The notes under the pieces are model-generated. The model was not told the DNA's origin and searched no databases. It worked only from the letters and a program-made list of their open reading frames with translations. Below, piece by piece: positions 4,982 to 29,901 of a stretch of 34,585 nucleotides of DNA; positions within the stretch are counted from its first letter, which is position 1; every line of letters starts with the position of its first letter. Where the stretch lies: IMG/VR virus record IMGVR_UViG_3300045988_064981, positions 1-34,585 of that record. One strand, 5' to 3'. A program made the position numbers and the translations under genes. Origin of the DNA: a virus.

Positions 4982-5348
4982 GCTCGTCATTGAGGGCACG
5001 TTGCCGGGACTCAATGAGTACAGCGACACCGAGCGCAGGACTTCGGGCGCTCAAGCAGCCGCACGGCTCAAGCGGGACACGCAGGAGCTCATCGGCTGGT
5101 ATATCCGGGCGCAGCTGCGAGGGCTGCGCATCGAGCAGCGGGTGAGACTCGAGTACCTGTGGGTAGAGCCCAACCGCCGCAGGGACATGGATAACATCGC
5201 ATTTGCTCACAAATTTGTCCAGGATGCGCTGGTTGAGCAGGGCGTGCTAGGCGGTGACGGATGGCGATATATCAGCGGCTTTGCCGACACGTTTGACGTG
5301 GACCGGCAGAGGCCGAGAGTGGAGATCAAGATCATCGAGGAGGATTGA
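4968..5348 (+). CDS. rusA: RusA-family Holliday junction resolvase
   Basis: LPGLNEY..., PNRRRDMDNIAFAHKFVQDALVEQGVLGGD matches the RusA RRDxDN...DAL motif. It overlaps the upstream gene by 14 nt. Confidence 0.8.
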   Translation: MQAHKLVIEGTLPGLNEYSDTERRTSGAQAAARLKRDTQELIGWYIRAQLRGLRIEQRVRLEYLWVEPNRRRDMDNIAFAHKFVQDALVEQGVLGGDGWRYISGFADTFDVDRQRPRVEIKIIEED

Positions 5349-7131: not shown

Positions 7132-7662
7132 ATGGGACGACCGGCAAAATCTGTTGATGTGCTGACGAGCACCAAATCGTCGCACCTGACCAAGGACGAG
7201 ATCCGCACGCGCAAGGCGGCGGAAAGCGCCGGACTCTCCGGGACCAAGCTGCGCGAGCGCGCGGAGGTCAAGAGCGATCCGGTTGCGCACGCGGAATTTT
7301 TGCGCGTGTCCAGGTTACTGACAAAAGTCGGCAAGAACGACGCGATGTTTGAGCCGATCATCAACCGCTACTGTCAGCTGCAATCCGAGTGTGCAGCGTT
7401 TGAGGAAATGCGCGGAGAGTTTGAGGCAGACCTGAAAGAGCTGCGCGCGAATGTGGAAATCGAGGACGGGACGCGCTACCGGCTGAAAGCCAAGATGCAG
7501 GACGCGATCCTCAACGCCGACAAGCAGATCCAGCAGAAACGCAAGATGCTGTTTGACATCGAGCGCGAGTGCGGCATGACTGTCTCCTCCGCCGTCCGCA
7601 TCGTGCCGAAGGCCGCACCGAAGGAAACCAATCCGCTGTTGGAGATACTGGGTGGAGATTGA
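7132..7662 (+). CDS. terS: Terminase small subunit, P27 family-like
   Basis: SD GAAGGAGG, ATG at 7132. MGRPAKSVDVLTSTKSSHLTKDEIRTRKAAE...FEPIINRYCQL...MLFDIERECGMTVSS is typical of P27-type TerS. Confidence 0.8.
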   Translation: MGRPAKSVDVLTSTKSSHLTKDEIRTRKAAESAGLSGTKLRERAEVKSDPVAHAEFLRVSRLLTKVGKNDAMFEPIINRYCQLQSECAAFEEMRGEFEADLKELRANVEIEDGTRYRLKAKMQDAILNADKQIQQKRKMLFDIERECGMTVSSAVRIVPKAAPKETNPLLEILGGD

Positions 7663-9328
7663 GAGCAGCCGCGCGGCGGAGTACGCGCGCTGGTGCGTCG
7701 CGGAGACCGGCGGACAGGTGCCGCACTACGTCAAGCTGCAAGCGCGGCAATGGCTCGACATCCTCGAGGGCAAAGTGCCCGGTGCGCGTGTGGACGATGC
7801 GGCGTATAAGCGGGTGAGCAAACTACTGCGCCTGATGGTGCATCCCGACCTTGGCTGCCCCATGGCGGACGGACTCGAGGACTACGCGCACCTGCTCATC
7901 GCGGCAGTGTTTTGCACGAGGACGGACGACGGCGCGCGATACTACGAGACCGCCGTGCTCGAGATTGCGCGAAAGAATTTTAAGACGTTTAACAGTGCGG
8001 CGGTGTTTATTCTGCTGATGCTGACAGAGCCGCGCTTCTCCCGCTTTTTCTCGGTCGCACCGGACCTGAAGCTGTCCTCGGAGCTCAAAGTGGCGATCCG
8101 CAAGATCATCAAATCCTCGCCGCTGCTTGCAGACGACAGCGTCTTTAAGGTACTCCGCAGCGAGATCCGCTGCAAGCTGACCGACAGCGACTATACGCCG
8201 CTTGCGTACAGCAACGACAAGATGGACGGCAAGCTCGCCAATGCGTTCCTCGCGGATGAGGCGGGCGCGATGGACAGCTACCCGATTGAGGCTATGAGAT
8301 CCTCGCAGATCACGCTGCGCTCCAAGCTGGGCATCATCATCTCGACGCAGTACCCAAACGACGAAAACGCCATGATCGACGAGATCGACATCAGCAAAAA
8401 GGTGCTGGACGGGCTGCTCGAGGGGCGACGCTTTGCGCTGCTGTATGAGCCGGACAACGAGCTGCTGGGTGAGGATCACTGGCAGACCGACGACCGGGTG
8501 ATTTACCAGGCAAACCCGGTCACGATCAAAAACGAGAATATCTTCAAGGCCATCGCCGATATGCGGACGATGGCCATTTTGTATGAAAACAAGAGAGAGA
8601 ACTTTTTGTGCAAGCACTGCAACATCAAGTTTAAGGGGCTGGGCACAGAGGGCTATGTCGAGGTCTCAAGGGTGCAAGCGTGCCGGCGCGACGCGGATGA
8701 CAAATGGTGGCGCGGGCGGCGCGTGTGGCTGGGGCTCGACCTCTCACAGACCGACGATAACACGGCGGTTGCCATGGTCACGACGGAGGACAACAGGATC
8801 TATGCACGGGTGTGGGGATTTATTCCGGCAGCGCGAACGCTCCTGAAGTCCAAGCGCGAGGGCGTCAACTACGACCGCATGATCAAAGACGGCGTGTGCT
8901 TTGCGTGCGGCGATGAGGTCATCGACTACGGCGACGTGGAGCGCTGGATCATCGGGTTGCAGGAGCGGTACGGTGTGGAGGTCATGCAGATCGGCTACGA
9001 CCGATACAACGCAATCAGCACGGTGCAAAAACTGGAGGAGGAAGCGCTGGAATGCGTGGAGATCAAGCAGCACTCGTCCGTGCTGCACAGCCCGACCAAG
9101 TTGCTGCGCGAGCAGATCCTGAGCGGTGCGTTTGGCTACGACGCCAACCAGCTGCTTGAGATCAATTTTCAAAATGCCCGCTGCACGAAGGACACAAATA
9201 TGAATCTGTATGTCAACAAAAAGCGCAGCGCGGGCAAGGTCGATATGGTGGTTGCGCTGATCAACGCCGTGTACCTCGTGCAGCAGGAGATGCTGTACGG
9301 CAGCGGATTTGCGGCGCAGGTATTTTGA
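7652..9328 (+). CDS. terL: Terminase large subunit (Terminase_1-type)
   Basis: GTG at 7652 overlaps the terS stop. 558 aa. Walker-A-like EIARKNFKT, Walker-B-like AFLADEAGAMD, and a C-terminal nuclease-like region. Confidence 0.85.
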   Translation: MEIESSRAAEYARWCVAETGGQVPHYVKLQARQWLDILEGKVPGARVDDAAYKRVSKLLRLMVHPDLGCPMADGLEDYAHLLIAAVFCTRTDDGARYYETAVLEIARKNFKTFNSAAVFILLMLTEPRFSRFFSVAPDLKLSSELKVAIRKIIKSSPLLADDSVFKVLRSEIRCKLTDSDYTPLAYSNDKMDGKLANAFLADEAGAMDSYPIEAMRSSQITLRSKLGIIISTQYPNDENAMIDEIDISKKVLDGLLEGRRFALLYEPDNELLGEDHWQTDDRVIYQANPVTIKNENIFKAIADMRTMAILYENKRENFLCKHCNIKFKGLGTEGYVEVSRVQACRRDADDKWWRGRRVWLGLDLSQTDDNTAVAMVTTEDNRIYARVWGFIPAARTLLKSKREGVNYDRMIKDGVCFACGDEVIDYGDVERWIIGLQERYGVEVMQIGYDRYNAISTVQKLEEEALECVEIKQHSSVLHSPTKLLREQILSGAFGYDANQLLEINFQNARCTKDTNMNLYVNKKRSAGKVDMVVALINAVYLVQQEMLYGSGFAAQVF

Positions 9329-9340
9329 CGAGGTGAAACG

Positions 9341-11002
9341 ATGGGATGGATTAAACGAGTGCTCGGCCTCGAACGCCGGGCAACAGAGGTGGAAATCGAG
9401 AGCACGCTGCTGCAAAGCCTACTCGATGAATCGGATGTCACACGTGAAACAGCCTTGCAGGTGCCGACCATCAGCGGCGGGATTGACCTGCTCGGCGCGC
9501 TGGTGGCTAGTACGCCGATCAAGCTGTACCACGAGCACGACGGCAAGGCGCACGAGATTGTGGGCGATCCGCGCATCCGGTTGCTGAATGACGAGACCGG
9601 CGACACGCTCAACGCCAACGAGTTTTGGCGCGCGATGGTCCGGGACTACTACCTCGGCAAGGGTGGCTATGCGTACATCCAGCGCAGCGGGCTGAGCGTC
9701 ATCGGTCTGTACTATGTCGATGAGCGCAATATCAGCGTGGCACGCGGCGCGGACGCTATCTTTAAGGAGTACGACATCTTGGTGCAGGGAAAGCGCTACC
9801 TGCCGCACGACTTTTTGCGCATCCTCCGCAACACGCGGGACGGCGCAGAAGGAATCCCCATCACGCGCGAGAGCAAGACGCTGATCTCGACCGCGTACCA
9901 GACGCTGCTGCTTGAGCGCAAGCTCGCGCTCATGGGCGGCAACAAAAAGGGATTTATCCAGTCCGCGAAAAAGCTGACGCAGGAGGCCATCGAGCAGATC
10001 CGAAAATCGTGGAACGAGATCCACTCCAACAACGCCAGAGCCGACAACATCGTGGTGCTCAATGACGGCGTCACATTTAAGGAGTCCAGCGCGACGAGCG
10101 TCGAGTTGCAGCTCAACGAAAACAAGCGCACCAACGCGGATGAGTTTGCGAAGATCTTCCACGTGCCGTCGGGCATGATCGGCGGCACGGCAACGCAGTC
10201 GGACATTGCCAGCCTGGCGCGTCTGGCCGCGATCCCGCTGATGGAGGCCATCGAGTGCGCACTCAACCGCGACCTGCTGCTGGAGTCCGAAAAGGGCTCA
10301 CTGTATTTTGCGTTTGATACCAAGGAGCTGCTCAAGGCCGATATGCAGACGCGGTTTAATGCGTACAAGACCGCGCTGGACGCGAACTTTATGCAGATCG
10401 ACGAGGTGCGATTTGCCGAAGATCTCGACCCGCTCGGCCTGACGTGGATCAAGCTCGGCTTGCAGGATGTGCTGTACGACCCGCGCACCAAGCAGATTTA
10501 TACGCCCAACACCAATCAGACCACGCAAATGGACGAGCAGCCGTTGCCAACGGATGGAGACCGTGGTATAATGAATGAGCGGGCACAAAAGCGAAGAGAA
10601 AACGGCCAGTTTGGCGAGAGCGACGGCATGGGTGGAAAGGACTCCGGCGGGACTGGAGGACAAGGAAGTGCGGCAGAAGCGGAAGCCCCACCGAAAACGC
10701 GGAAACAGCCTAATGGTAGTATAGTGCTGGTAGCGGGTGAAAAGGAGCGCTATCGCAAAAATATCATTGGCACCAAGTGCGGCGATGGCGTGAAAATCAC
10801 GCGGTTTGGTAAGTCACACGTACTGGGAAGAATCGCGAAGCGAGGAATATCTCCAAAGCAGATAACGGATGCTCTGAAGGACAAACATCCGGACGCGTCA
10901 AAAACAATAGAGGGGAGATTTGCCTACAAAGACCCGAAGACGGGAGTGCGTGTTATTGTTGACCACAAGGACGGCGCAATCGTGACAGTCACCAACGAAT
11001 AG
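9341..11002 (+). CDS. HK97-family portal protein with a ~168-aa C-terminal extension (Gly-rich linker plus small toxin-like domain)
   Basis: The N-terminal ~385 aa are portal-like (position after TerL; ...PTISGGIDLLGALVASTPIKLY...). The extension contains GESDGMGGKDSGGTGGQGSAAEAEA and then SHVLGRIAKRGISPKQITDAL...GVRVIVDHKDGAIVTVT. Confidence 0.85.
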   Translation: MGWIKRVLGLERRATEVEIESTLLQSLLDESDVTRETALQVPTISGGIDLLGALVASTPIKLYHEHDGKAHEIVGDPRIRLLNDETGDTLNANEFWRAMVRDYYLGKGGYAYIQRSGLSVIGLYYVDERNISVARGADAIFKEYDILVQGKRYLPHDFLRILRNTRDGAEGIPITRESKTLISTAYQTLLLERKLALMGGNKKGFIQSAKKLTQEAIEQIRKSWNEIHSNNARADNIVVLNDGVTFKESSATSVELQLNENKRTNADEFAKIFHVPSGMIGGTATQSDIASLARLAAIPLMEAIECALNRDLLLESEKGSLYFAFDTKELLKADMQTRFNAYKTALDANFMQIDEVRFAEDLDPLGLTWIKLGLQDVLYDPRTKQIYTPNTNQTTQMDEQPLPTDGDRGIMNERAQKRRENGQFGESDGMGGKDSGGTGGQGSAAEAEAPPKTRKQPNGSIVLVAGEKERYRKNIIGTKCGDGVKITRFGKSHVLGRIAKRGISPKQITDALKDKHPDASKTIEGRFAYKDPKTGVRVIVDHKDGAIVTVTNE

Positions 11003-11013
11003 AGGGGTGTAAT

Positions 11014-11283
11014 GTGTTTGACAAAGAGATGTTCACGCCGGAGGAACGCGCGTGGATTAAGGACGAAATAAAAATCGATCTCGACCGCCAAGAATTTACA
11101 CAAGAGGTAATGAACAATATCTGGTGGGGAGCGATCGACATCGAATGCGACGAAGCAGAGCTGGAGGATGAAAGATATGCGGACGTTGATACGGATGCAG
11201 ATGATTTTGTCCCGGAGGAAACGGACCGCATAAAAATGGCTTGCAGAATTGTCGATAAGACGAACGCGAAATGCACGATATAA
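11014..11283 (+). CDS. Small highly acidic protein (89 aa), candidate immunity/antitoxin partner
   Basis: GTG at 11014 (or ATG at 11029). 27 D/E versus 11 K/R. GC is lower than the flanks. It is followed directly by an intrinsic terminator. Confidence 0.6.
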   Translation: MFDKEMFTPEERAWIKDEIKIDLDRQEFTQEVMNNIWWGAIDIECDEAELEDERYADVDTDADDFVPEETDRIKMACRIVDKTNAKCTI

Positions 11284-11301
11284 GCCAACAATAAAACCGA
11301 A

Positions 11302-11354: not shown

Positions 11355-11948
11355 ATGAGAATTGAGATCCGCGCCGATGGGGCGCATATCTCCGGGTATG
11401 TCAATGCCACGGAGAAAAAGAGCAATCCGGTCATGACGCCGCACGGACGGGTAGTCGAAGAGATCGAGCCGCGCGCGTTTGCGGAGGCGCTGGAACGGGC
11501 ACAGGACGTGCCGCTGACGGTGGACCATACGGAAAAGGTGTATGCGTCTACCGGGGCGGGTACGATGGAGCTACGTGAGGACGGCATCGGCCTGCACGCG
11601 GACGCGACCGTTACCGATCCCGTGCTGATCGACGCGGCGCGCGGTGGGAAGATCCGTGGCTGGTCCTTTGGGATGTACAACGTGCAGGACGAGATCGAGC
11701 AGCGGGCGGACGACGTGCCACTGCGCAAAATCAAGGCTCTGGACCTTGACCATGTGACGCTTGTGATTGACAAGCGCCCTGTGTACAGCGCGACCTCGGT
11801 TGAGGTGCGCGCGGATGCGGAGGCGGTCGTGGAGACCCGCGCCGCATATGGAGACGCACAGATCGTGGACAATGTGCCGCGATTTGATAACTCGGCCTAC
11901 CGCGCACGCGTGGAGGCCATCAAAGATGTGAAGGAGGCAAACGAATGA
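11355..11948 (+). CDS. HK97-family prohead protease
   Basis: SD AAAGGAG. ISGYVNATEK...EIEPRAFAEAL...VPLTVDHT...LREDGIGLHADATV...GWSFGM pattern. It lies between portal and capsid. Confidence 0.8.
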   Translation: MRIEIRADGAHISGYVNATEKKSNPVMTPHGRVVEEIEPRAFAEALERAQDVPLTVDHTEKVYASTGAGTMELREDGIGLHADATVTDPVLIDAARGGKIRGWSFGMYNVQDEIEQRADDVPLRKIKALDLDHVTLVIDKRPVYSATSVEVRADAEAVVETRAAYGDAQIVDNVPRFDNSAYRARVEAIKDVKEANE

Positions 11949-13105
11949 AGAACCTGAAAGCACTGGTCGAGCGCCGTGCAAAGCTGCGCGGCGACATGAC
12001 CGCCATGGTCGAAAAGGCCGACACGGAAAAGCGCGCGCTGTCCGAAGAGGAGGCCGCTGCGTTCGACAAAGCCGAGGCGGAGATCAAGGCACTCGACGAG
12101 ACCATTGCGCGTATCAAGCGGATGCGCGACATCCCCGACGAGCCCGATGAGCCGCAGGGCGGCGAGGGCGGCGCGGACACGCTGTCCGAGGAGGAGCGCG
12201 CCTTTGCGGACTACGTCACCGGCAAGGTGACGGAGTTGCGTGCCGGCGAACAGAACGTGACCATGGGCAACAACGGCGCGATCATCCCCACGAGCATTGC
12301 GGACAAGATCATCAAAAAGATCAAGGACGTGTGCCCCATCCTTGAACGCGCGACCATGTACAACGTCAAGGGCACGCTCAAGGTCCCCGTCTGGGGCAAG
12401 GCCAACACCACCCACGACATCGCCGTGGGCTACCAGACCGAGTTTACCGACATCACCGCCGATGCGGGCAAATTTACCAGCATCGACCTGTCCGGCTATC
12501 TTGCCGGCGCGCTGGTGCTGATCGGCCGCTCTGTTGAAAACAACGGTGCGTTTAGCGTGGTCGATTTTATCACCACGCAGATTGCCGAGGAGGTTGCGGC
12601 GTGGATCGAGGGCCAGCTGCTGACCGGCACCGGCACGTCCGCCGCGCAGGGCGCGCTGAACTGCGACAACACCCTGACTGCCGCGGGTGCGACCGCCATC
12701 ACCGCCGACGAGCTGATTGAGCTCCAGTCCAAGGTCAAGCAGGCGTACCAGGGCGACGCGATCTGGATTATGAATCCTGCCACCTTTACGGCGATCAAAA
12801 AGCTCAAGGACAGCAACAACCGCTACCTGCTCCAGGACGATATCACCGGGGATTTCCCCTTCCGCTTGCTGGGCAAGCCGGTTTATCTGTCCGACAACAT
12901 GCCTGCCGTCGCCGCGTCTGCTAAGACGATCCTCTACGGCGACATGCGCGGCCTGTCCGTCAATTTCCGCGAAAACATCTCGGTCGAGGTCCTGCGCGAA
13001 AAGTACGCCACCCAGCACGCGCTGGGCGTTGTGACCTGGTTTGAGTTTGACTCCAAGGTGACGGACAACCAGCGCATGGCGGTGCTGGTGCAGAAAGAGT
13101 CCTAA
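11945..13105 (+). CDS. Major capsid protein, HK97 family
   Basis: ATGA overlap with the protease gene. N-terminal coiled-coil delta-like region (KALVERRAKLRGDMTAMVEKADTEKRALSEEE). 386 aa. Confidence 0.85.
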   Translation: MKNLKALVERRAKLRGDMTAMVEKADTEKRALSEEEAAAFDKAEAEIKALDETIARIKRMRDIPDEPDEPQGGEGGADTLSEEERAFADYVTGKVTELRAGEQNVTMGNNGAIIPTSIADKIIKKIKDVCPILERATMYNVKGTLKVPVWGKANTTHDIAVGYQTEFTDITADAGKFTSIDLSGYLAGALVLIGRSVENNGAFSVVDFITTQIAEEVAAWIEGQLLTGTGTSAAQGALNCDNTLTAAGATAITADELIELQSKVKQAYQGDAIWIMNPATFTAIKKLKDSNNRYLLQDDITGDFPFRLLGKPVYLSDNMPAVAASAKTILYGDMRGLSVNFRENISVEVLREKYATQHALGVVTWFEFDSKVTDNQRMAVLVQKES

Positions 13106-23648: not shown

Positions 23649-24060
23649 GGTAAGATCGGACATCCTCCGGCAGGCGCAGGAGATCCGCAAGGCGACACAG
23701 ACCCTCGCGGCCTACGCGCCGGACGAAGTGGCACTGGCGGCTCCTGCGGTGCTGTTTGACACATGGAGCGCGAGCGGGGTGGCCTATGCCAAGGGCGACA
23801 TCCGGCAGTACAACGGCCTGCTGTACCGCTGCGCACAGCCGCACACATCACAGTCTGACCGGACACCGTCCGCTGCTGAGTCCCTCTGGACTCGGATCGC
23901 AGACCCGACGCAGGAGTGGCCGGAGTGGATTCAGCCGACCGGGGCGCACGACGCATATGCCAAGGGCGCAAAGGTCAGCTATAACGGCAAGCACTGGGTT
24001 AGCACGGCTGACGCTAATGTGTGGGCGCCTGGAACATATGGTTGGGAGGAGGCGACCTGA
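23641..24060 (+). CDS. Protein with two carbohydrate-binding CBM5/12-like repeats
   Basis: AYAKGDIRQYNGLLYRCAQPHTSQSDRTPSAAESLW and AYAKGAKVSYNGKHWVSTADANVWAPG fit the Y-x-G-D/x-V-x-YNG...W pattern. Confidence 0.6.
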   Translation: MSKVRSDILRQAQEIRKATQTLAAYAPDEVALAAPAVLFDTWSASGVAYAKGDIRQYNGLLYRCAQPHTSQSDRTPSAAESLWTRIADPTQEWPEWIQPTGAHDAYAKGAKVSYNGKHWVSTADANVWAPGTYGWEEAT

Positions 24061-25310
24061 TGCACATCCGAGTCAAGATCACCCGCGACAGGAGCGGCAG
24101 GGTTGTGACGATGGAGATGGAGGACTATCTCAAGGGCGTGGTGCCGTCTGAAATCAAGGCGGAGACCTGTCCGATGGAGGCGCAAAAGGCACAGGCTATT
24201 GCCGCACGAACGTATGCCATCCGCAAGACCATCGACCGCCGCAGCAAGCCCTACGACGTGGACGATACCGCCGGATATCAGGCGTATGGAGCGCGACCGC
24301 GTCACAAAAACAGCGACGCGGCAGTGGAAGCAACGCGCGGACTGGTGCTGATGTACGGCGGCAAGCTCATTGACGCGGTCTACACCGACAGCAACGGCGG
24401 TCGCTGCGTGTCCTCCTTGGAGCGCTGGGGCAGTGCTGTCCCCTACCTGATCGACCAGCTCGACCCCTATGACAACTCCGGCAAGGTGCGCGGGCATGGT
24501 GTAGGACTGAGCCAGACCGGAGCTGCCACAAGGGGAAAAGCGGGGCAGACATGCGCGGAAATCCTCGGATTTTATTATCCGAGGGCGGTGATAAAAAAGC
24601 TGAAGGAGGCCGACAAGATGAATCTCGATGCAAAGCTGTCCGAGAATTTTACGCTGCGGGAATTTTATGACCCGGCGAACTATGTGGACGTGCTCAAGGG
24701 CAAGGCCGCACCCATCGTGCAGCCCAGCGACATTGACCACCGCATCATCGCCCTGCTGGAAAAGCTGCGGGCGAAGTACCGCCAGAAATGGCCGGGCGTG
24801 GTGATACGCATCCGACCGCATGGCGGCTACCGTCCCGATCCGCTGAACAAGCTGGTGGGCGGCGCACCCGGAAGCCAGCACCGCAAGGGCAACGCGGCGG
24901 ATTATAGCGTCGTGGTGCTTGGCAAGGCAATCGACGCGCCGACGCTGGCAGTCTGGACGGAGCATTACATGCAGGAGCTGGGCATCAAGGGCGGCATTGG
25001 GATGTACAAGGCCACCGACAATTACATCCATGTGGACGCGCGCGGAAAAAATGTCGCCTGGTACGACAGTTATTCTTCGGCCGGCTGCCCCGGACAGGGT
25101 GGTCGGCCTTGCACGTACCGCAAGGGCAGCAAGGGTGCGGGCGTGGTGCTGATCCAGCGGTATCTGGGCATCCCGGCAGATGGCAAATACGGCCCCAAAA
25201 CGATGGAGGCCGTGAAGGAATGGCAGGCGGAACACGGATGCACGCCGGACGGCATCTTTGGGCGCGAGACCAACCGCAAGATGGGCTATGTGCTGCCCTG
25301 GGAGGTGTAA
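24060..25310 (+). CDS. Three-domain endolysin: SpoIID/LytB-like, Peptidase_M15 (DUF882-type) and PG_binding_1
   Basis: YLKGVVPSEI...EAQKAQAIAARTYA (SpoIID-like). FTLREF...SQHRKGNAADY...IHVDAR (M15 zinc ligand pattern). GAGVVLIQRYLGIPADGKYGPKTMEAVKEWQAEHGCTPDGIFGRET (PG-binding). Confidence 0.8.
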   Translation: MHIRVKITRDRSGRVVTMEMEDYLKGVVPSEIKAETCPMEAQKAQAIAARTYAIRKTIDRRSKPYDVDDTAGYQAYGARPRHKNSDAAVEATRGLVLMYGGKLIDAVYTDSNGGRCVSSLERWGSAVPYLIDQLDPYDNSGKVRGHGVGLSQTGAATRGKAGQTCAEILGFYYPRAVIKKLKEADKMNLDAKLSENFTLREFYDPANYVDVLKGKAAPIVQPSDIDHRIIALLEKLRAKYRQKWPGVVIRIRPHGGYRPDPLNKLVGGAPGSQHRKGNAADYSVVVLGKAIDAPTLAVWTEHYMQELGIKGGIGMYKATDNYIHVDARGKNVAWYDSYSSAGCPGQGGRPCTYRKGSKGAGVVLIQRYLGIPADGKYGPKTMEAVKEWQAEHGCTPDGIFGRETNRKMGYVLPWEV

Positions 25311-26913: not shown

Positions 26914-27552
26914 ATGCCTGACGTAAAAGCAAATCTCAAATGCAGGGAGTGTGGGATCCCCATCCCACACCCCACTGCGTATCAAACGCTCTGCGACGAG
27001 TGCGCAAAGCGCCTGAAAAGTGCAATGGCGCTCCGGCCGCGTGTATGCGTCGAGTGCGGGGTTACATTTGACGGTTATCCCAAATCTAAGCGCTGTCCGG
27101 CTTGCCGGCATGAGCGCGTGCTGCGGCTTCGGGCGGGGTATCGGGCTGCGGAAAAGGCGGGCAAACAGCGCAAAATTGGCGAGACATATCTGTGCGAGAG
27201 ATGCGGCAAGCCGTATACGCTGACCGGCGGATTGCAGCGATATTGCCCGGATTGCAAGGACGATGCGGTGCTGGAGGCCAATCGCGCTGCGTCCCGCGAG
27301 TATATGCGGGCGCACCGGGGCGAGCAGAAGCGATCTAAACACGCCGTCAGATATTGCGTGGTCTGCGGGAGGGATATCTCCGCGAACACCAGCACTATCA
27401 CGTGCAGCCCGGAGTGCGCGCTGGAGCGGAGACGGCAGCGGCAGCGCGCTGCGGATGCTCGGCGCGGAGTCGGGCGCGGCTCACAGGATTACACCCCAAC
27501 AAAAGCACGCGGGGTCCCGCGTACCCTGAAGTCGGCAAAAAAGGAGGAATAA
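26914..27552 (+). CDS. Multi-zinc-ribbon protein (4 CxxC...CxxC units), paralogue of 28729..29901
   Basis: CRECG..CDEC, CVECG..CPAC, CERCG..CPDC and CVVCG..CSPEC, with a basic C-terminus. It is collinear with the N-terminal half of the longer paralogue. Confidence 0.8.
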   Translation: MPDVKANLKCRECGIPIPHPTAYQTLCDECAKRLKSAMALRPRVCVECGVTFDGYPKSKRCPACRHERVLRLRAGYRAAEKAGKQRKIGETYLCERCGKPYTLTGGLQRYCPDCKDDAVLEANRAASREYMRAHRGEQKRSKHAVRYCVVCGRDISANTSTITCSPECALERRRQRQRAADARRGVGRGSQDYTPTKARGVPRTLKSAKKEE

Positions 27553-28064: not shown

Positions 28065-28736
28065 ATGTACGTATACGATCGTGGACTGTATGTATTTAAT
28101 CGTGACGAGATGAGATTTATGGACGGCAAGACCGTCCTCATAATCAACACCATGCGCCGCGCCCCCGACGAAAGTCGCCCGTGCCACAACACCGACGAGA
28201 TCATCGGCAAGGTGATTGACGTCGATGCCCTCCCGTACGACATTGCACATGATGCGTATGTCGTGCCGGACGTCGAGGCCATCAAGGCGGCGGTTGCCGA
28301 AAAATATCCTGTTGATTGCGCTGAGCTGGATGACGGCTCCGTGGGATGGACGAACATAGACGAGGAGCCGTGCTGCGAGTATACATACGGGGTGTGCATC
28401 CCGAGTATGTATAACATCCCTGATGAGTTGGACGATGATGAGCAGCTTGAGTGGTGGGCAGATCATCACTGGGAGCGCGACGAGGGCGAGCCGGAGTGGT
28501 ATGATACGCTCAAGGAGGCTCTCGCGGCAGCTGACAAAGCGTTTTCTGCCGGACAGCCCATCCCCTGGATCTACATCCAAAAATTTAACGTCAAGACCGG
28601 CGATCCGGAGTACGAGCTGGATGAGATCGAGCTGGATGCGGATGAGGACGGCAATTGGGACATGGGGTCGGACGATCCGCTGGCGTGGAAAGAGTACAAT
28701 CTGGCTTGTGACGAGGATGAGGTAGACAATGCCTGA
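28065..28736 (+). CDS. Highly acidic protein (223 aa), unknown family
   Basis: ATG at 28065, 9 nt after GGAGG (the ATG at 28056 abuts the SD). The C-terminal third is nearly poly-D/E (DELDDDEQLEWW..DPEYELDEIELDADEDG..CDEDEVDNA). Confidence 0.75.
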   Translation: MYVYDRGLYVFNRDEMRFMDGKTVLIINTMRRAPDESRPCHNTDEIIGKVIDVDALPYDIAHDAYVVPDVEAIKAAVAEKYPVDCAELDDGSVGWTNIDEEPCCEYTYGVCIPSMYNIPDELDDDEQLEWWADHHWERDEGEPEWYDTLKEALAAADKAFSAGQPIPWIYIQKFNVKTGDPEYELDEIELDADEDGNWDMGSDDPLAWKEYNLACDEDEVDNA

Positions 28737-29901
28737 GATCAGAGCCAACGTTATTTGCCGAGAGTGCGGGACACCAATCCCGCACCCTACTCGGTATCAA
28801 AAACTTTGCGACGAGTGCCAGCAAAAAGCAATCCACAAGGGCAAAAAAGTTGAACGCATTTGCACCGAGTGCGGTCGGAAATTTATCGGCGGGCCCAGTG
28901 CCAAGAGATGCCCGGACTGCAAGCGTGAGCGCGACCTAGAGAGAGCGCGGCTGCACCAGCAAGCCAAGGCTGCGGGGCACGCGCGGGAGCTTGGAAGGAC
29001 GTATATCTGTGAGGCGTGCGGAAAACCTTACGTCCTCAATAGTGGGATGCAAAAATATTGCCCGGACTGCATGGAGGAGCAACGCAAAAAAGATACCCGT
29101 GAAAAAGTGAATGACTACATGCGTGCCAATAAAGGCAAGTATCCCAAATACCCGCGTATGAGAGTATGCGTGATCTGCGGTAAGATACTCGAGCCGGGGA
29201 CGCGCGAGATTACATGCAGCCCGGAATGTGCGGAAAAAAGAGCGTTGCAACAATACGACGCGTCAATGGGTAATCCTGATCCGGACTATCACCCGACAAA
29301 GGGCGCCGGGCATCCGCAAAAATCCAGACGCCAGATGACTGAGCTCTCGACGTCAGGAGCGACCGATCAGTTAGTGCAACCCCACAAAGCAGTCTGTTGC
29401 AAATTGCCCGTAGATGAGGCTAGGTCGTTTGCGAATGCGGCTCTTGTTAATGGGATGTCCGCATCACAACTCTTGCAGCAGCTGGTCCGCGACTACATGG
29501 CAAACAAAGACATAGCGGCGTTGGCGGCCGCGGCTGAAAAATTACCGAAGCACGCGCGCCGAGATGTAAAAAAAACTTGTCAAAAGTGCGGTATCGAATT
29601 TATGGGAGATCGCATTGCAAAATACTGCCCCGCATGCAAGATAGCGGTCCAGCGCCAGCAGACGTTAGACTACTCAAGACGCATGCGCCCAAAGACCAGC
29701 CGCCATGTAGGCGAGGTCTATCCGTGCAAGCGCTGTGGTAATGATTATGTACTAGAGACTCCTGGTCAGCAGTATTGCCGTAAGTGTGCCAAGATTGCAT
29801 ATAGAGAGTATGCAGCCAATGCATATCAAAATAAGCGAGCCCGCGAAGCGCAAAAAAAAGAAGCAACGCCGGAGGAAGAGTCACAAAATACAGATCAGTG
29901 A
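28729..29901 (+). CDS. Multi-zinc-ribbon protein with internal RHH-like segment (6 CxxC...CxxC units)
   Basis: 390 aa. The N-terminal ~200 aa are collinear with 26914..27552. The middle segment KAVCCKLPVDEARSFANAALVNGMSASQLLQQLVRDYM matches the 27554..27763 product. Two further zinc ribbons follow at the C-terminus. Confidence 0.8.
   Translation: MPEIRANVICRECGTPIPHPTRYQKLCDECQQKAIHKGKKVERICTECGRKFIGGPSAKRCPDCKRERDLERARLHQQAKAAGHARELGRTYICEACGKPYVLNSGMQKYCPDCMEEQRKKDTREKVNDYMRANKGKYPKYPRMRVCVICGKILEPGTREITCSPECAEKRALQQYDASMGNPDPDYHPTKGAGHPQKSRRQMTELSTSGATDQLVQPHKAVCCKLPVDEARSFANAALVNGMSASQLLQQLVRDYMANKDIAALAAAAEKLPKHARRDVKKTCQKCGIEFMGDRIAKYCPACKIAVQRQQTLDYSRRMRPKTSRHVGEVYPCKRCGNDYVLETPGQQYCRKCAKIAYREYAANAYQNKRAREAQKKEATPEEESQNTDQ

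Follow-up and report, generated by a model that had tools for sequence, protein, structure and literature searches.

The window analysed here is the viral record IMGVR_UViG_3300045988_064981 at its full length of 34,585 nucleotides, and the locus in question is a portal gene whose product carries an additional toxin-like C-terminal domain, together with the small gene directly downstream. The portal gene (9341..11002, +) is one uninterrupted open reading frame (ORF) of 553 amino acids and consists of three parts. Residues 1-390 (9341..10510, +) form an HK97-family portal core, recognized by Pfam Phage_portal (PF04860; residues 47-360, E 7.5e-49, 167 bits against a cut-off of 39), by the equivalog model TIGR01537 portal_HK97 (residues 33-365, 157 bits against a cut-off of 112) and by phrog_12 of the PHROGs collection. 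Alignments with the portals of cultured phages stop at about residue 400 of the 553. Residues 391-450 (10511..10690, +) form a low-complexity linker whose translation passes from a Q/T/P-rich through a basic to a Gly/Ser/Ala-rich composition. Its upstream limit is the end of the portal-core matches, its downstream limit the start of the confidently folded domain at residue 451. The basic stretch terminates in RRENGQFGESDGMGG (residues 418-432), and the Gly/Ser/Ala-rich part reaches residue 450. The third part is a C-terminal domain of 103 residues (residues 451-553; 10691..10999, +), which carries GKSHVLGRIAKRGISPKQITDAL and, further on, GVRVIVDHKDGAIVTVTNE. The GC content of the domain is 0.50, compared to 0.59 in the portal core and 0.62 in the protease and capsid genes. 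An earlier sequence-only reading of the window had described the same layout, a portal-like part continued by a Q/T/P-rich, a basic and a Gly/Ser-rich stretch and by a terminal domain of lower GC content, and the profile matches, the translation and the base composition agree with it in each respect.

The gene following the domain, ORF89 (11014..11283, +), encodes an acidic protein of 89 amino acids (isoelectric point, pI, of 4.1) and is the putative cognate immunity gene of the domain. Both genes are located within a head module that consists of the large terminase TerL (7652..9328, +; PF03354 and PF20441), the portal, ORF89, a prohead serine protease of family S78 (11355..11948, +; PF04586, E 1.2e-25), which is a candidate processing enzyme, and an HK97-type major capsid protein (11945..13105, +; PF05065, E 3.9e-46). 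The portal gene hence occupies the position in which a portal is expected.

The fused gene and its deletion allele

The fused ORF is found intact, with the same architecture, in seven further contigs that were assembled independently from different samples (L011-L014 and L016-L018), and residues 433-553 do not show a single amino-acid change across these contigs. The fusion is likewise kept in P0007, a relative with 72% identity, and in homologues down to about 46-53% portal identity; the diverged homologues with the fusion include P0007, P0009, P0012, P0017, P0024, P0074, P0101 and P0107. When the window is compared with the P0007 locus, we obtain ratios of non-synonymous to synonymous substitutions (dN/dS) of 0.15 (domain) and 0.23 (ORF89): both are under purifying selection. 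The gene is an HK97-family portal with a real, selected C-terminal domain on a flexible linker.

Some near-identical contigs show a portal of 447 residues followed by a separate ORF of 70 residues, a pattern that would also arise if the fusion were an artefact of assembly or of a frameshift and the true gene stopped near residues 400-447. The split form is accounted for by a segment of 109 nucleotides (10666..10774, +) that is absent from these contigs, according to the alignment, the gene tables and the positions of repeats. The segment is bracketed by 9-nucleotide direct repeats, AAGTGCGGC, at 10666..10674 and 10775..10783. The deletion allele occurs in L001 (9986..9994), L002 and L015, and also in P0003. 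As 109 is not divisible by three, the reading frame is shifted, resulting in the 447-residue portal (ending in GQGSAAMA) and the separate 70-residue ORF, whose GTG start codon overlaps the portal stop codon and which retains the whole core of the DUF4258 family to which we assign the domain below. P0001, with 70 residues, is identical to the last 70 residues of the window ORF, and the contigs in which it is found, L001 and L002, are near-identical phages. The deleted segment encodes conserved domain residues (ERxRY...IGxKTxDG), therefore the split form is the derived state, and residues 451-483, the part of the domain that the deletion removes, are themselves under purifying selection (dN/dS of 0.08 in the comparison with the P0007 locus). 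On these grounds the fusion is the prevalent as well as the ancestral state, and the deletion allele is a derived variant that arose between the direct repeats. A reversible phase switch was also considered for the 109-nucleotide difference and rejected, because a deletion between direct repeats is irreversible.

With at least seven independently assembled contigs harboring the intact fusion, and with homologues at 46-72% portal identity in which it is likewise present, the artefact explanation is contradicted and its remaining probability is negligible. The sequence-only reading had named a stop near residue 400 in relatives as the sign of such an artefact. No stop is found there in the seven independent contigs, and the comparison of portal lengths that it had proposed is in favor of the fusion for these contigs and for the diverged homologues; the minority allele, with its 447 residues, is the part that does not conform.

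Family and fold of the C-terminal domain

The domain is basic (pI 10.2) and diverged. A word-indexed homologue search with its 103 residues returned P0001, the 70-residue product of the split allele, as the sole match, and a tblastn search against 50,697 deposited phage genomes returned no match. An exhaustive phmmer search against 1.84 billion representatives identified 22 relatives, all of which have the domain at the C-terminus, and linked it to members of the family DUF4258 (PF14076), namely P0128 (E 3.3e-6) and P0133 (E 6.1e-5). These two proteins score 28.0 and 28.5 bits on PF14076, above the cut-off of the family. Within an alignment of 29 sequences, 19 relatives match DUF4258 at E <= 0.01 (best 5.6e-8), and the sub-threshold alignment of the window domain itself still spans profile positions 3-69 of 71. 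At its N-terminus the subfamily is extended by about 40 residues, which form two short strands and one helix (ERxRY...IGxKTSDG) and are located outside the Pfam model.

Four residues are invariant in the alignment of 29 sequences: G33, H43, R51 and Y79, corresponding to G483, H493, R501 and Y529 of the portal, with H493 encoded at 10817..10819 and R501 at 10841..10843. The last strand holds a Thr or Ser (T549 in the window). Most relatives have an Asp after the His (HAxDR), in place of which the window has a Gly (HVLGR). The invariant His and Arg fit the signature 'H, [KR]' of Ntox49, a predicted BECR-fold toxin whose carriers include MuF proteins (Zhang et al. 2012, PMC3482391). DUF4258 overlaps Ntox49 and is placed in the colicin-like branch of BECR domains (2026 preprint); it is also listed among the RelE/ParE-type toxins of toxin-antitoxin (TA) systems (PMC11980606). 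The Pfam models PBECR1-5 did not match the domain at E <= 1.

Four of the phmmer matches (P0122, P0133, P0138 and P0139) have an N-terminal Phage_portal_3 domain, which represents a different portal family. P0122 (1394 residues) consists of Phage_portal_3, a NUDIX domain, an ADP-ribosyltransferase (ART) and a DUF4258-like domain; P0133 (1063 residues) consists of Phage_portal_3, NUDIX and a DUF4258-like domain; P0138 (715 residues) is a further member of these giant proteins, with Phage_portal_3 and NUDIX ahead of a terminal DUF4258-like domain. All three resemble polyvalent proteins, built on portals of another family.

An AlphaFold2 model of the domain, computed with the alignment of 29 sequences, reaches a predicted local distance difference test (pLDDT) score of 93.5 and contains a pair of short strands, three helices and a C-terminal sheet of three strands, with H43 predicted to open the second helix. 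The best match in a Foldseek search against the PDB is the tRNase CdiA-CT of E. coli NC101 (E 0.028, probability 0.96, template modelling score, TM, 0.44-0.51), followed by RelE2, colicin D, HigB and colicin E5 (matches include PDB entries 5i4r, 5znm, 1tfk and 3ao9). The best matches in BFVD are uncharacterised phage proteins (TM up to 0.71), and its matches include a DUF4258 protein of Microbacterium phage Honk. A profile search of the PDB with the domain alignment likewise placed colicin E5 on the first three ranks, with E-values of 0.6-0.75 that are not significant on their own. The domain is assigned to the DUF4258 lineage because of the transitive profile links, the invariant His493 and Arg501, the AlphaFold2 model and the structural matches to BECR toxins. 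We regard it as very probable that residues 451-553 constitute a divergent DUF4258/Ntox49-type BECR domain with its predicted catalytic residues intact.

Membership in this family leaves room for a role other than that of a toxin. Without being catalytic, the domain might serve the portal as an appendage, structural or binding nucleic acid, that holds the DNA end or organizes the packaged DNA, with ORF89 being an unrelated small head or assembly factor. A very basic domain that is tethered inside the capsid beside the DNA would suit such a role, and the role itself has been ascribed to the inactive PBECR domain in the head protein gp30 of Mu (Iyer et al., PMC5512222). The Gly in place of the Asp of HAxDR points in the same direction, as does the listing of DUF4258 as a family of unknown function (PMC11980606). 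Against it, all 29 diverged sequences retain the His and Arg that characterize active sites of the Ntox49 type, and the exchange of the domain together with its neighboring gene, described next, is left unexplained.

An exchangeable cassette with a putative immunity gene

The domain is part of a cassette of lower GC content (10637..11299, +; GC content 0.496) that comprises the end of the linker, the toxin-like domain and the small acidic ORF. Its limits are defined by DNA identity to three loci, L003, L004 and L005, which are about 96% identical to the window up to position 10636 and again from 11290-11300. The 663 nucleotides between these flanks are replaced in L003-L005 by a block without homology to the window. 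The portals P0004, P0005 and P0006 accordingly are 94-98% identical to the window portal up to residues 434-454 and wholly different beyond. The replaced block spans the C-terminal domain as well as the downstream small ORF, and in the place of ORF89 the three loci harbor a Cys_rich_CPCC protein of 64-83 residues.

The alternative tail, denoted class 1, has the invariant residues H, H, Y, R, Y and T. It matches chain A of PDB entry 8ey4, a toxin-immunity complex (CdiA-CT/CdiI) of contact-dependent growth inhibition (CDI) from E. coli, with an E-value of 1.8e-13 by sequence; the structural comparison of the modelled tail is in accordance with this (Foldseek E 8.3e-4, TM 0.80, root-mean-square deviation 1.6 Å), with colicin D as the next match. 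The CPCC protein matches the partner chain, chain I, of the same entry (E 2.8e-18). Therefore the replacing allele contains homologues of the two members of a toxin-immunity pair whose structure is solved. A literature search on 8EY4 and on Cys_rich_CPCC found no papers. A MuF protein of Streptococcus phage MismyG (L036) carries the same type of cassette at its C-terminus, again with a CPCC ORF downstream; this locus is a canonical MuF polymorphic toxin. The 8ey4-like pair thus occurs on portals and on MuF, and therefore the module moves between two head-protein carriers and bacterial CDI systems. The alternative cassettes are found at 5297..5927 in L003, 3561..4122 in L005 and 2217..3930 in L036. 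An hhalign comparison of the window-class domain with the class-1 domain detected no relation (probability 1.4%), and we treat the two classes as apparently unrelated by sequence, though both look colicin-like in structure. The domain and ORF89 form one exchangeable, putative toxin-immunity cassette, and the exchange is very recent. The joint exchange of a toxin domain and its downstream gene is a hallmark of polymorphic toxins.

The occurrence of the small gene follows that of the tail. All 12 distinct tailed loci in which the protease gene is in view (including the window type) harbor an acidic ORF of 64-99 residues (pI 4.1-4.9) between portal and protease. The ORF is absent from all six tail-less loci, whose portals end in tails of 13-24 residues, and in four of the six the portal and protease genes abut or overlap. 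The ORFs downstream of other window-class tails share homology among themselves (E 2e-12). ORF89 shows a weak collinear similarity to them (pairwise E 0.01), with the shared motifs I-E-x-D-E and D-R-x-K. No match to ORF89 was found in Pfam, PHROGs, NCBIfam, PADLOC or the PDB; for Pfam and NCBIfam this includes the helix-turn-helix, ribbon-helix-helix and MqsA-type antitoxin families. ORF89 is considered immunity-like because it is swapped together with the domain and its counterparts are present only where a tail is present, and it most likely encodes the cognate immunity protein of the domain. The appendage explanation introduced above accounts neither for the replacement of domain and neighbor by homologues of a CDI toxin-immunity pair in near-identical phages, nor for the missing small ORF at tail-less portals, and we consider it improbable.

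Tails are not restricted to the window and its closest relatives. Among the 120 nearest portal homologues, 103 have a tail of at least 60 residues beyond the portal core, hence most portals of this clade are tailed. At least five classes of tails can be distinguished, without BLAST similarity to one another: as in polymorphic toxins, a conserved carrier, here the portal, is joined to alternative and unrelated C-termini. A Pfam scan of four other tail classes gave no significant family. Class 2 tails (P0016, P0078 and P0119; for example in L030) also precede an acidic ORF, of 83 residues. Class 4 tails (P0019, P0083 and P0099) end in E(I/L/V)HW...G...K(R/V)KRW. P0113 also belongs to the further tail classes (at least three) without a Pfam match. 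The further tail classes are probably additional toxin families.

The variable domains are preceded by a common junction motif. In the window it is the segment RRENGQFGESDGMGG at the end of the basic stretch (10592..10636, +), with NGQFGESDGMGG as the window version of the motif itself. A survey of tails for the tripeptide G[RQK][FW] identified it in 98 of the 103; among the tails listed it typically is embedded in R-A-N-P-N-H-D-P-x-x-G-(R/Q)-F-(T/S)-S-G-G-G ahead of the variable domain. In the window the cassette has its left breakpoint, where the identity to L003-L005 ends (position 10636), directly after the motif. Similar motifs are found ahead of the domain in several of the phmmer relatives, among them P0139, which contains the end of a Phage_portal_3 domain, and short solo proteins. 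The motif may be a signal for processing or for recombination.

We also observe a window-class tail outside of an evident phage context. The locus L010 (GCA_037306465.1, JAXZKL010000057.1; 3001..4872) consists of the window-class-tail portal P0107 and an acidic ORF of 83 residues. Its neighbors are bacterial genes (a YitT membrane protein, an HhH-GPD glycosylase and a methyltransferase), and no upstream terminase is called in the stretch shown. L010 may be what is left of a prophage, with the toxin-immunity end preserved.

Proposed mode of action and relation to known systems

With some reservation, we interpret the locus as probably encoding a portal-borne polymorphic toxin and its immunity protein, by analogy with the MuF toxins. 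In such a system the portal would take the role of carrier that MuF has in the MuF polymorphic toxins, and its C-terminus would present a small, basic, metal-independent RNase-type toxin domain on a tether of about 60 residues. Portal C-termini face the capsid interior, so that up to 12 copies of the domain would be enclosed with the DNA as part of the portal. Proteolysis in the linker would then free the domain, for which the obvious candidate is the S78 protease encoded 350 nucleotides downstream. The freed domain would exit through the channel with the DNA into the newly infected cell and cleave RNA there (tRNA, rRNA or mRNA), and ORF89 would neutralize the domain in the cell that produces the phage as well as in any lysogen sharing the cassette. 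Delivery by ejection is suggested by the fusion to a virion protein, and we consider it less likely than not.

Several points weigh against this interpretation. The window domain scores 14.3 bits (E 0.05) on DUF4258, below the gathering cut-off of 25, so that the Pfam check recommended by the sequence-only reading did align the suspected family but stayed short of its threshold. The top structural matches in the PDB (E 0.028-0.3, TM 0.44-0.52) are moderate, none of them reaching E 1e-3, and the function of DUF4258 is listed as unknown (Gerdes 2025, PMC11980606). With respect to the partner, the link between ORF89 and the other downstream ORFs appears weak at the pairwise E-value of 0.01, and a homologue search with ORF89 found only members of the same cassette. 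The fusion would be dispensable for virions if the genomes with the deletion allele (three contigs, L001, L002 and L015) represent viable phages. The portal remains in the capsid, hence delivery requires a cleavage that is so far hypothetical, and the toxicity of the domain as well as its neutralization by ORF89 are predictions.

The cassette could also act within the cell alone, as a TA or addiction module of the prophage, in which case the toxin would be made separately, from an internal start or promoter or as the 70-residue ORF, and the fusion to the portal would be incidental. DUF4258 does appear among RelE/ParE-type TA toxins (PMC11980606), and the deletion allele provides a free-standing ORF with the whole DUF4258 core. 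The phage has a tyrosine integrase (32319..33488, -; PF00589, PF22022 and PF14659) and therefore is temperate. Furthermore, a strong promoter-like site is located just upstream (10544..10572, +; TTGCCA-17-TATAAT with an upstream TG, 11 of 12 in a scan for the sigma-70-like consensus). The site is located inside the coding region of the linker, about 60 nucleotides upstream of the cassette, and might allow lysogens to express the cassette, or ORF89, independently of the portal; the scan found one site against 0.9 expected by chance at its threshold, and in L001 the second hexamer is TATACT. An incidental fusion is difficult to reconcile with its in-frame conservation from 46% to 100% portal identity, with its separate origin on the unrelated family Phage_portal_3, and with the presence of the same cassette type on MuF in another phage. 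In addition, the order of toxin followed by immunity gene, with a partner in which Pfam and NCBIfam recognize no DNA-binding domain, is the layout of polymorphic toxins and not that of the usual type II TA system. Overall, an addiction module is an unlikely explanation. Membership in the type II TA systems (RelE/ParE) was also examined for the domain in its own right and rejected, the toxin domain being the C-terminus of a structural protein of 553 residues.

A portal-borne polymorphic toxin, the interpretation preferred here, has its closest counterpart in the MuF polymorphic toxins, whose immunity genes are likewise located downstream (Zhang et al. 2012, PMC3482391; Jamet et al. 2017, PMC5576092), examples being Bxa and Apk2 (PMC11699363). 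Both combine a head-protein domain that is conserved at the N-terminus with a toxin that varies at the C-terminus, and in both a small gene for immunity comes directly after. Both are found in temperate phages of gut Firmicutes, and Ntox49 is among the MuF-borne toxins. They differ in the carrier, which here is the portal, an essential ring with 12 copies per virion, compared to 1-2 copies of MuF in SPP1, and in the release, which here requires cleavage from a protein that is retained in the capsid. Of the N-terminal domains that define MuF proteins (PF04233, PF06152 or MuF3/4), those covered by Pfam are absent from the window portal, Phage_portal being the only Pfam family above threshold in the 553-residue product. 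Likewise, no MuF family is among the precomputed Pfam hits for the genes called in the sister contig L001 between RecT and the tail genes.

A second comparison concerns the PBECR domains of polyvalent proteins, whose simplest architectures are fusions to MuF and to portal domains and which are predicted to be packaged and injected (Iyer et al. 2017, J Bacteriol, PMC5512222); the same group later described portals with fused Nudix, 2H and ART domains. The combination of portal and BECR RNase is therefore an already known kind of arrangement. The locus resembles these proteins in having a predicted BECR-fold RNase on a portal C-terminus among late head genes, and relatives of its domain occur on the large portal-NUDIX-ART proteins P0122 and P0133, which are typical polyvalent proteins. 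In contrast to them, the window domain belongs to the DUF4258/Ntox49 lineage, without a match to PBECR1-5. It is a single effector, with neither a processing metallopeptidase nor LPD domains, and has a co-varying immunity-like gene, a feature of polymorphic toxins that has not been stressed for polyvalent proteins. The resemblance to other DUF4258/Ntox49 proteins consists of the near-full profile alignment and the signature of His and Arg/Lys, and some members of the family exceed the gathering score.

These comparisons also bear on the claims of the sequence-only reading. Its assignment of the domain to a BECR/RelE-like, DUF4258-like type is borne out by the 19 of 29 relatives that match DUF4258, and the AlphaFold2 and Foldseek results are compatible with it; the product of 11014..11283, which it had named as a possible partner, is indeed swapped with the domain and present only where a tail is present; and the analogy to MuF polymorphic toxins gains from the alternative cassette on MuF in MismyG. 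Its expectation that a portal-anchored version would be unusual does not hold, given the portal fusions named by Iyer et al. 2017 (PMC5512222) and the tails in 103 of the 120 nearest homologues.

The third comparison is with CDI toxins (CdiA-CT/CdiI) and with the tRNases colicin D and colicin E5, which, judged by the Foldseek matches, appear to belong to the same fold class as the window domain. In CDI systems, too, a conserved peptide delimits a modular C-terminal toxin (VENN in CdiA; NGQFGESDGMGG or NHDPxxGRFTSG in the portals) that is followed by an immunity gene, and the two chains of 8ey4 each have a homologue in the sister cassette. The delivery machine here would be a phage capsid instead of a type V secretion filament or a colicin translocation domain, and the window domain has no significant sequence match to the solved CDI and colicin toxins (best E 0.6). 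With respect to storage in the head, T4 Alt and the internal proteins of T4, the ejection proteins of P22 and the virion RNA polymerase of N4 are known to be stored there and to act in the newly infected cell. Unlike the window domain these proteins are free in the capsid or are released by the prohead protease from a targeting peptide, and to our knowledge none of them is a covalent extension of the portal. Head-stored, co-injected phage proteins are treated in the introduction of PMC5512222.

In the literature searched, four aspects of the locus appear to be undescribed: that an HK97-family portal can carry a domain of the DUF4258/Ntox49 type, that portal genes have very recently exchanged toxin-immunity cassettes as a whole, that tails are near-universal in this portal clade, and the family of ORF89. 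MuF-borne toxins are common in gut prophages, and their biological role and delivery route are still unknown (PMC11699363). For a portal-borne toxin the position and the copy number are fixed and the tether is defined, which allows concrete questions about the cut, the protease and the exit with the DNA; it would provide a stoichiometrically defined system for the release and delivery of head-borne phage toxins. The cassette swap includes homologues of CdiA-CT/CdiI, therefore portals, MuF proteins and bacterial CDI systems draw on the same pool of toxin-immunity pairs. We note that annotation pipelines label such genes 'portal protein', overlooking the effector as well as its partner.

A more far-reaching version of the proposal, which we consider rather doubtful, is that the HK97-type portals of gut Oscillospiraceae phages represent a distinct family of polymorphic toxins that has so far gone uncharacterised. 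The portal ring would be the carrier, the junction motif would be both the boundary of cassette exchange and the site of release by the protease, the copies would be ejected with the DNA, and ORF89 would found a new immunity family. If so, up to 12 toxin copies per virion would be released at the motif (NHDPxxG(R/Q)F(T/S)SGGG or NGQFGESDGMGG), and lysogens would be protected solely against phages with the same cassette, which amounts to a system of kin discrimination.

The phage is a gut phage, whose relatives are found in metagenome-assembled genomes of Oscillospiraceae, Subdoligranulum and Ruminococcaceae, some of them within contigs of 167-387 kb. Sister contigs have lengths of 34-36.5 kb, which suggests that the window is a near-complete genome. 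Outside the head module, a gene at 24021..25310 (+) encodes a multi-domain endolysin with a SpoIID-like domain, an M15 peptidase and PG_binding_1. Two further genes (26914..27552, + and 28729..29901, +) have matches to an N-terminal double zinc-ribbon (DZR) near or below the Pfam thresholds. Both are located between the lysis genes and the integrase, and may be cargo expressed during lysogeny.

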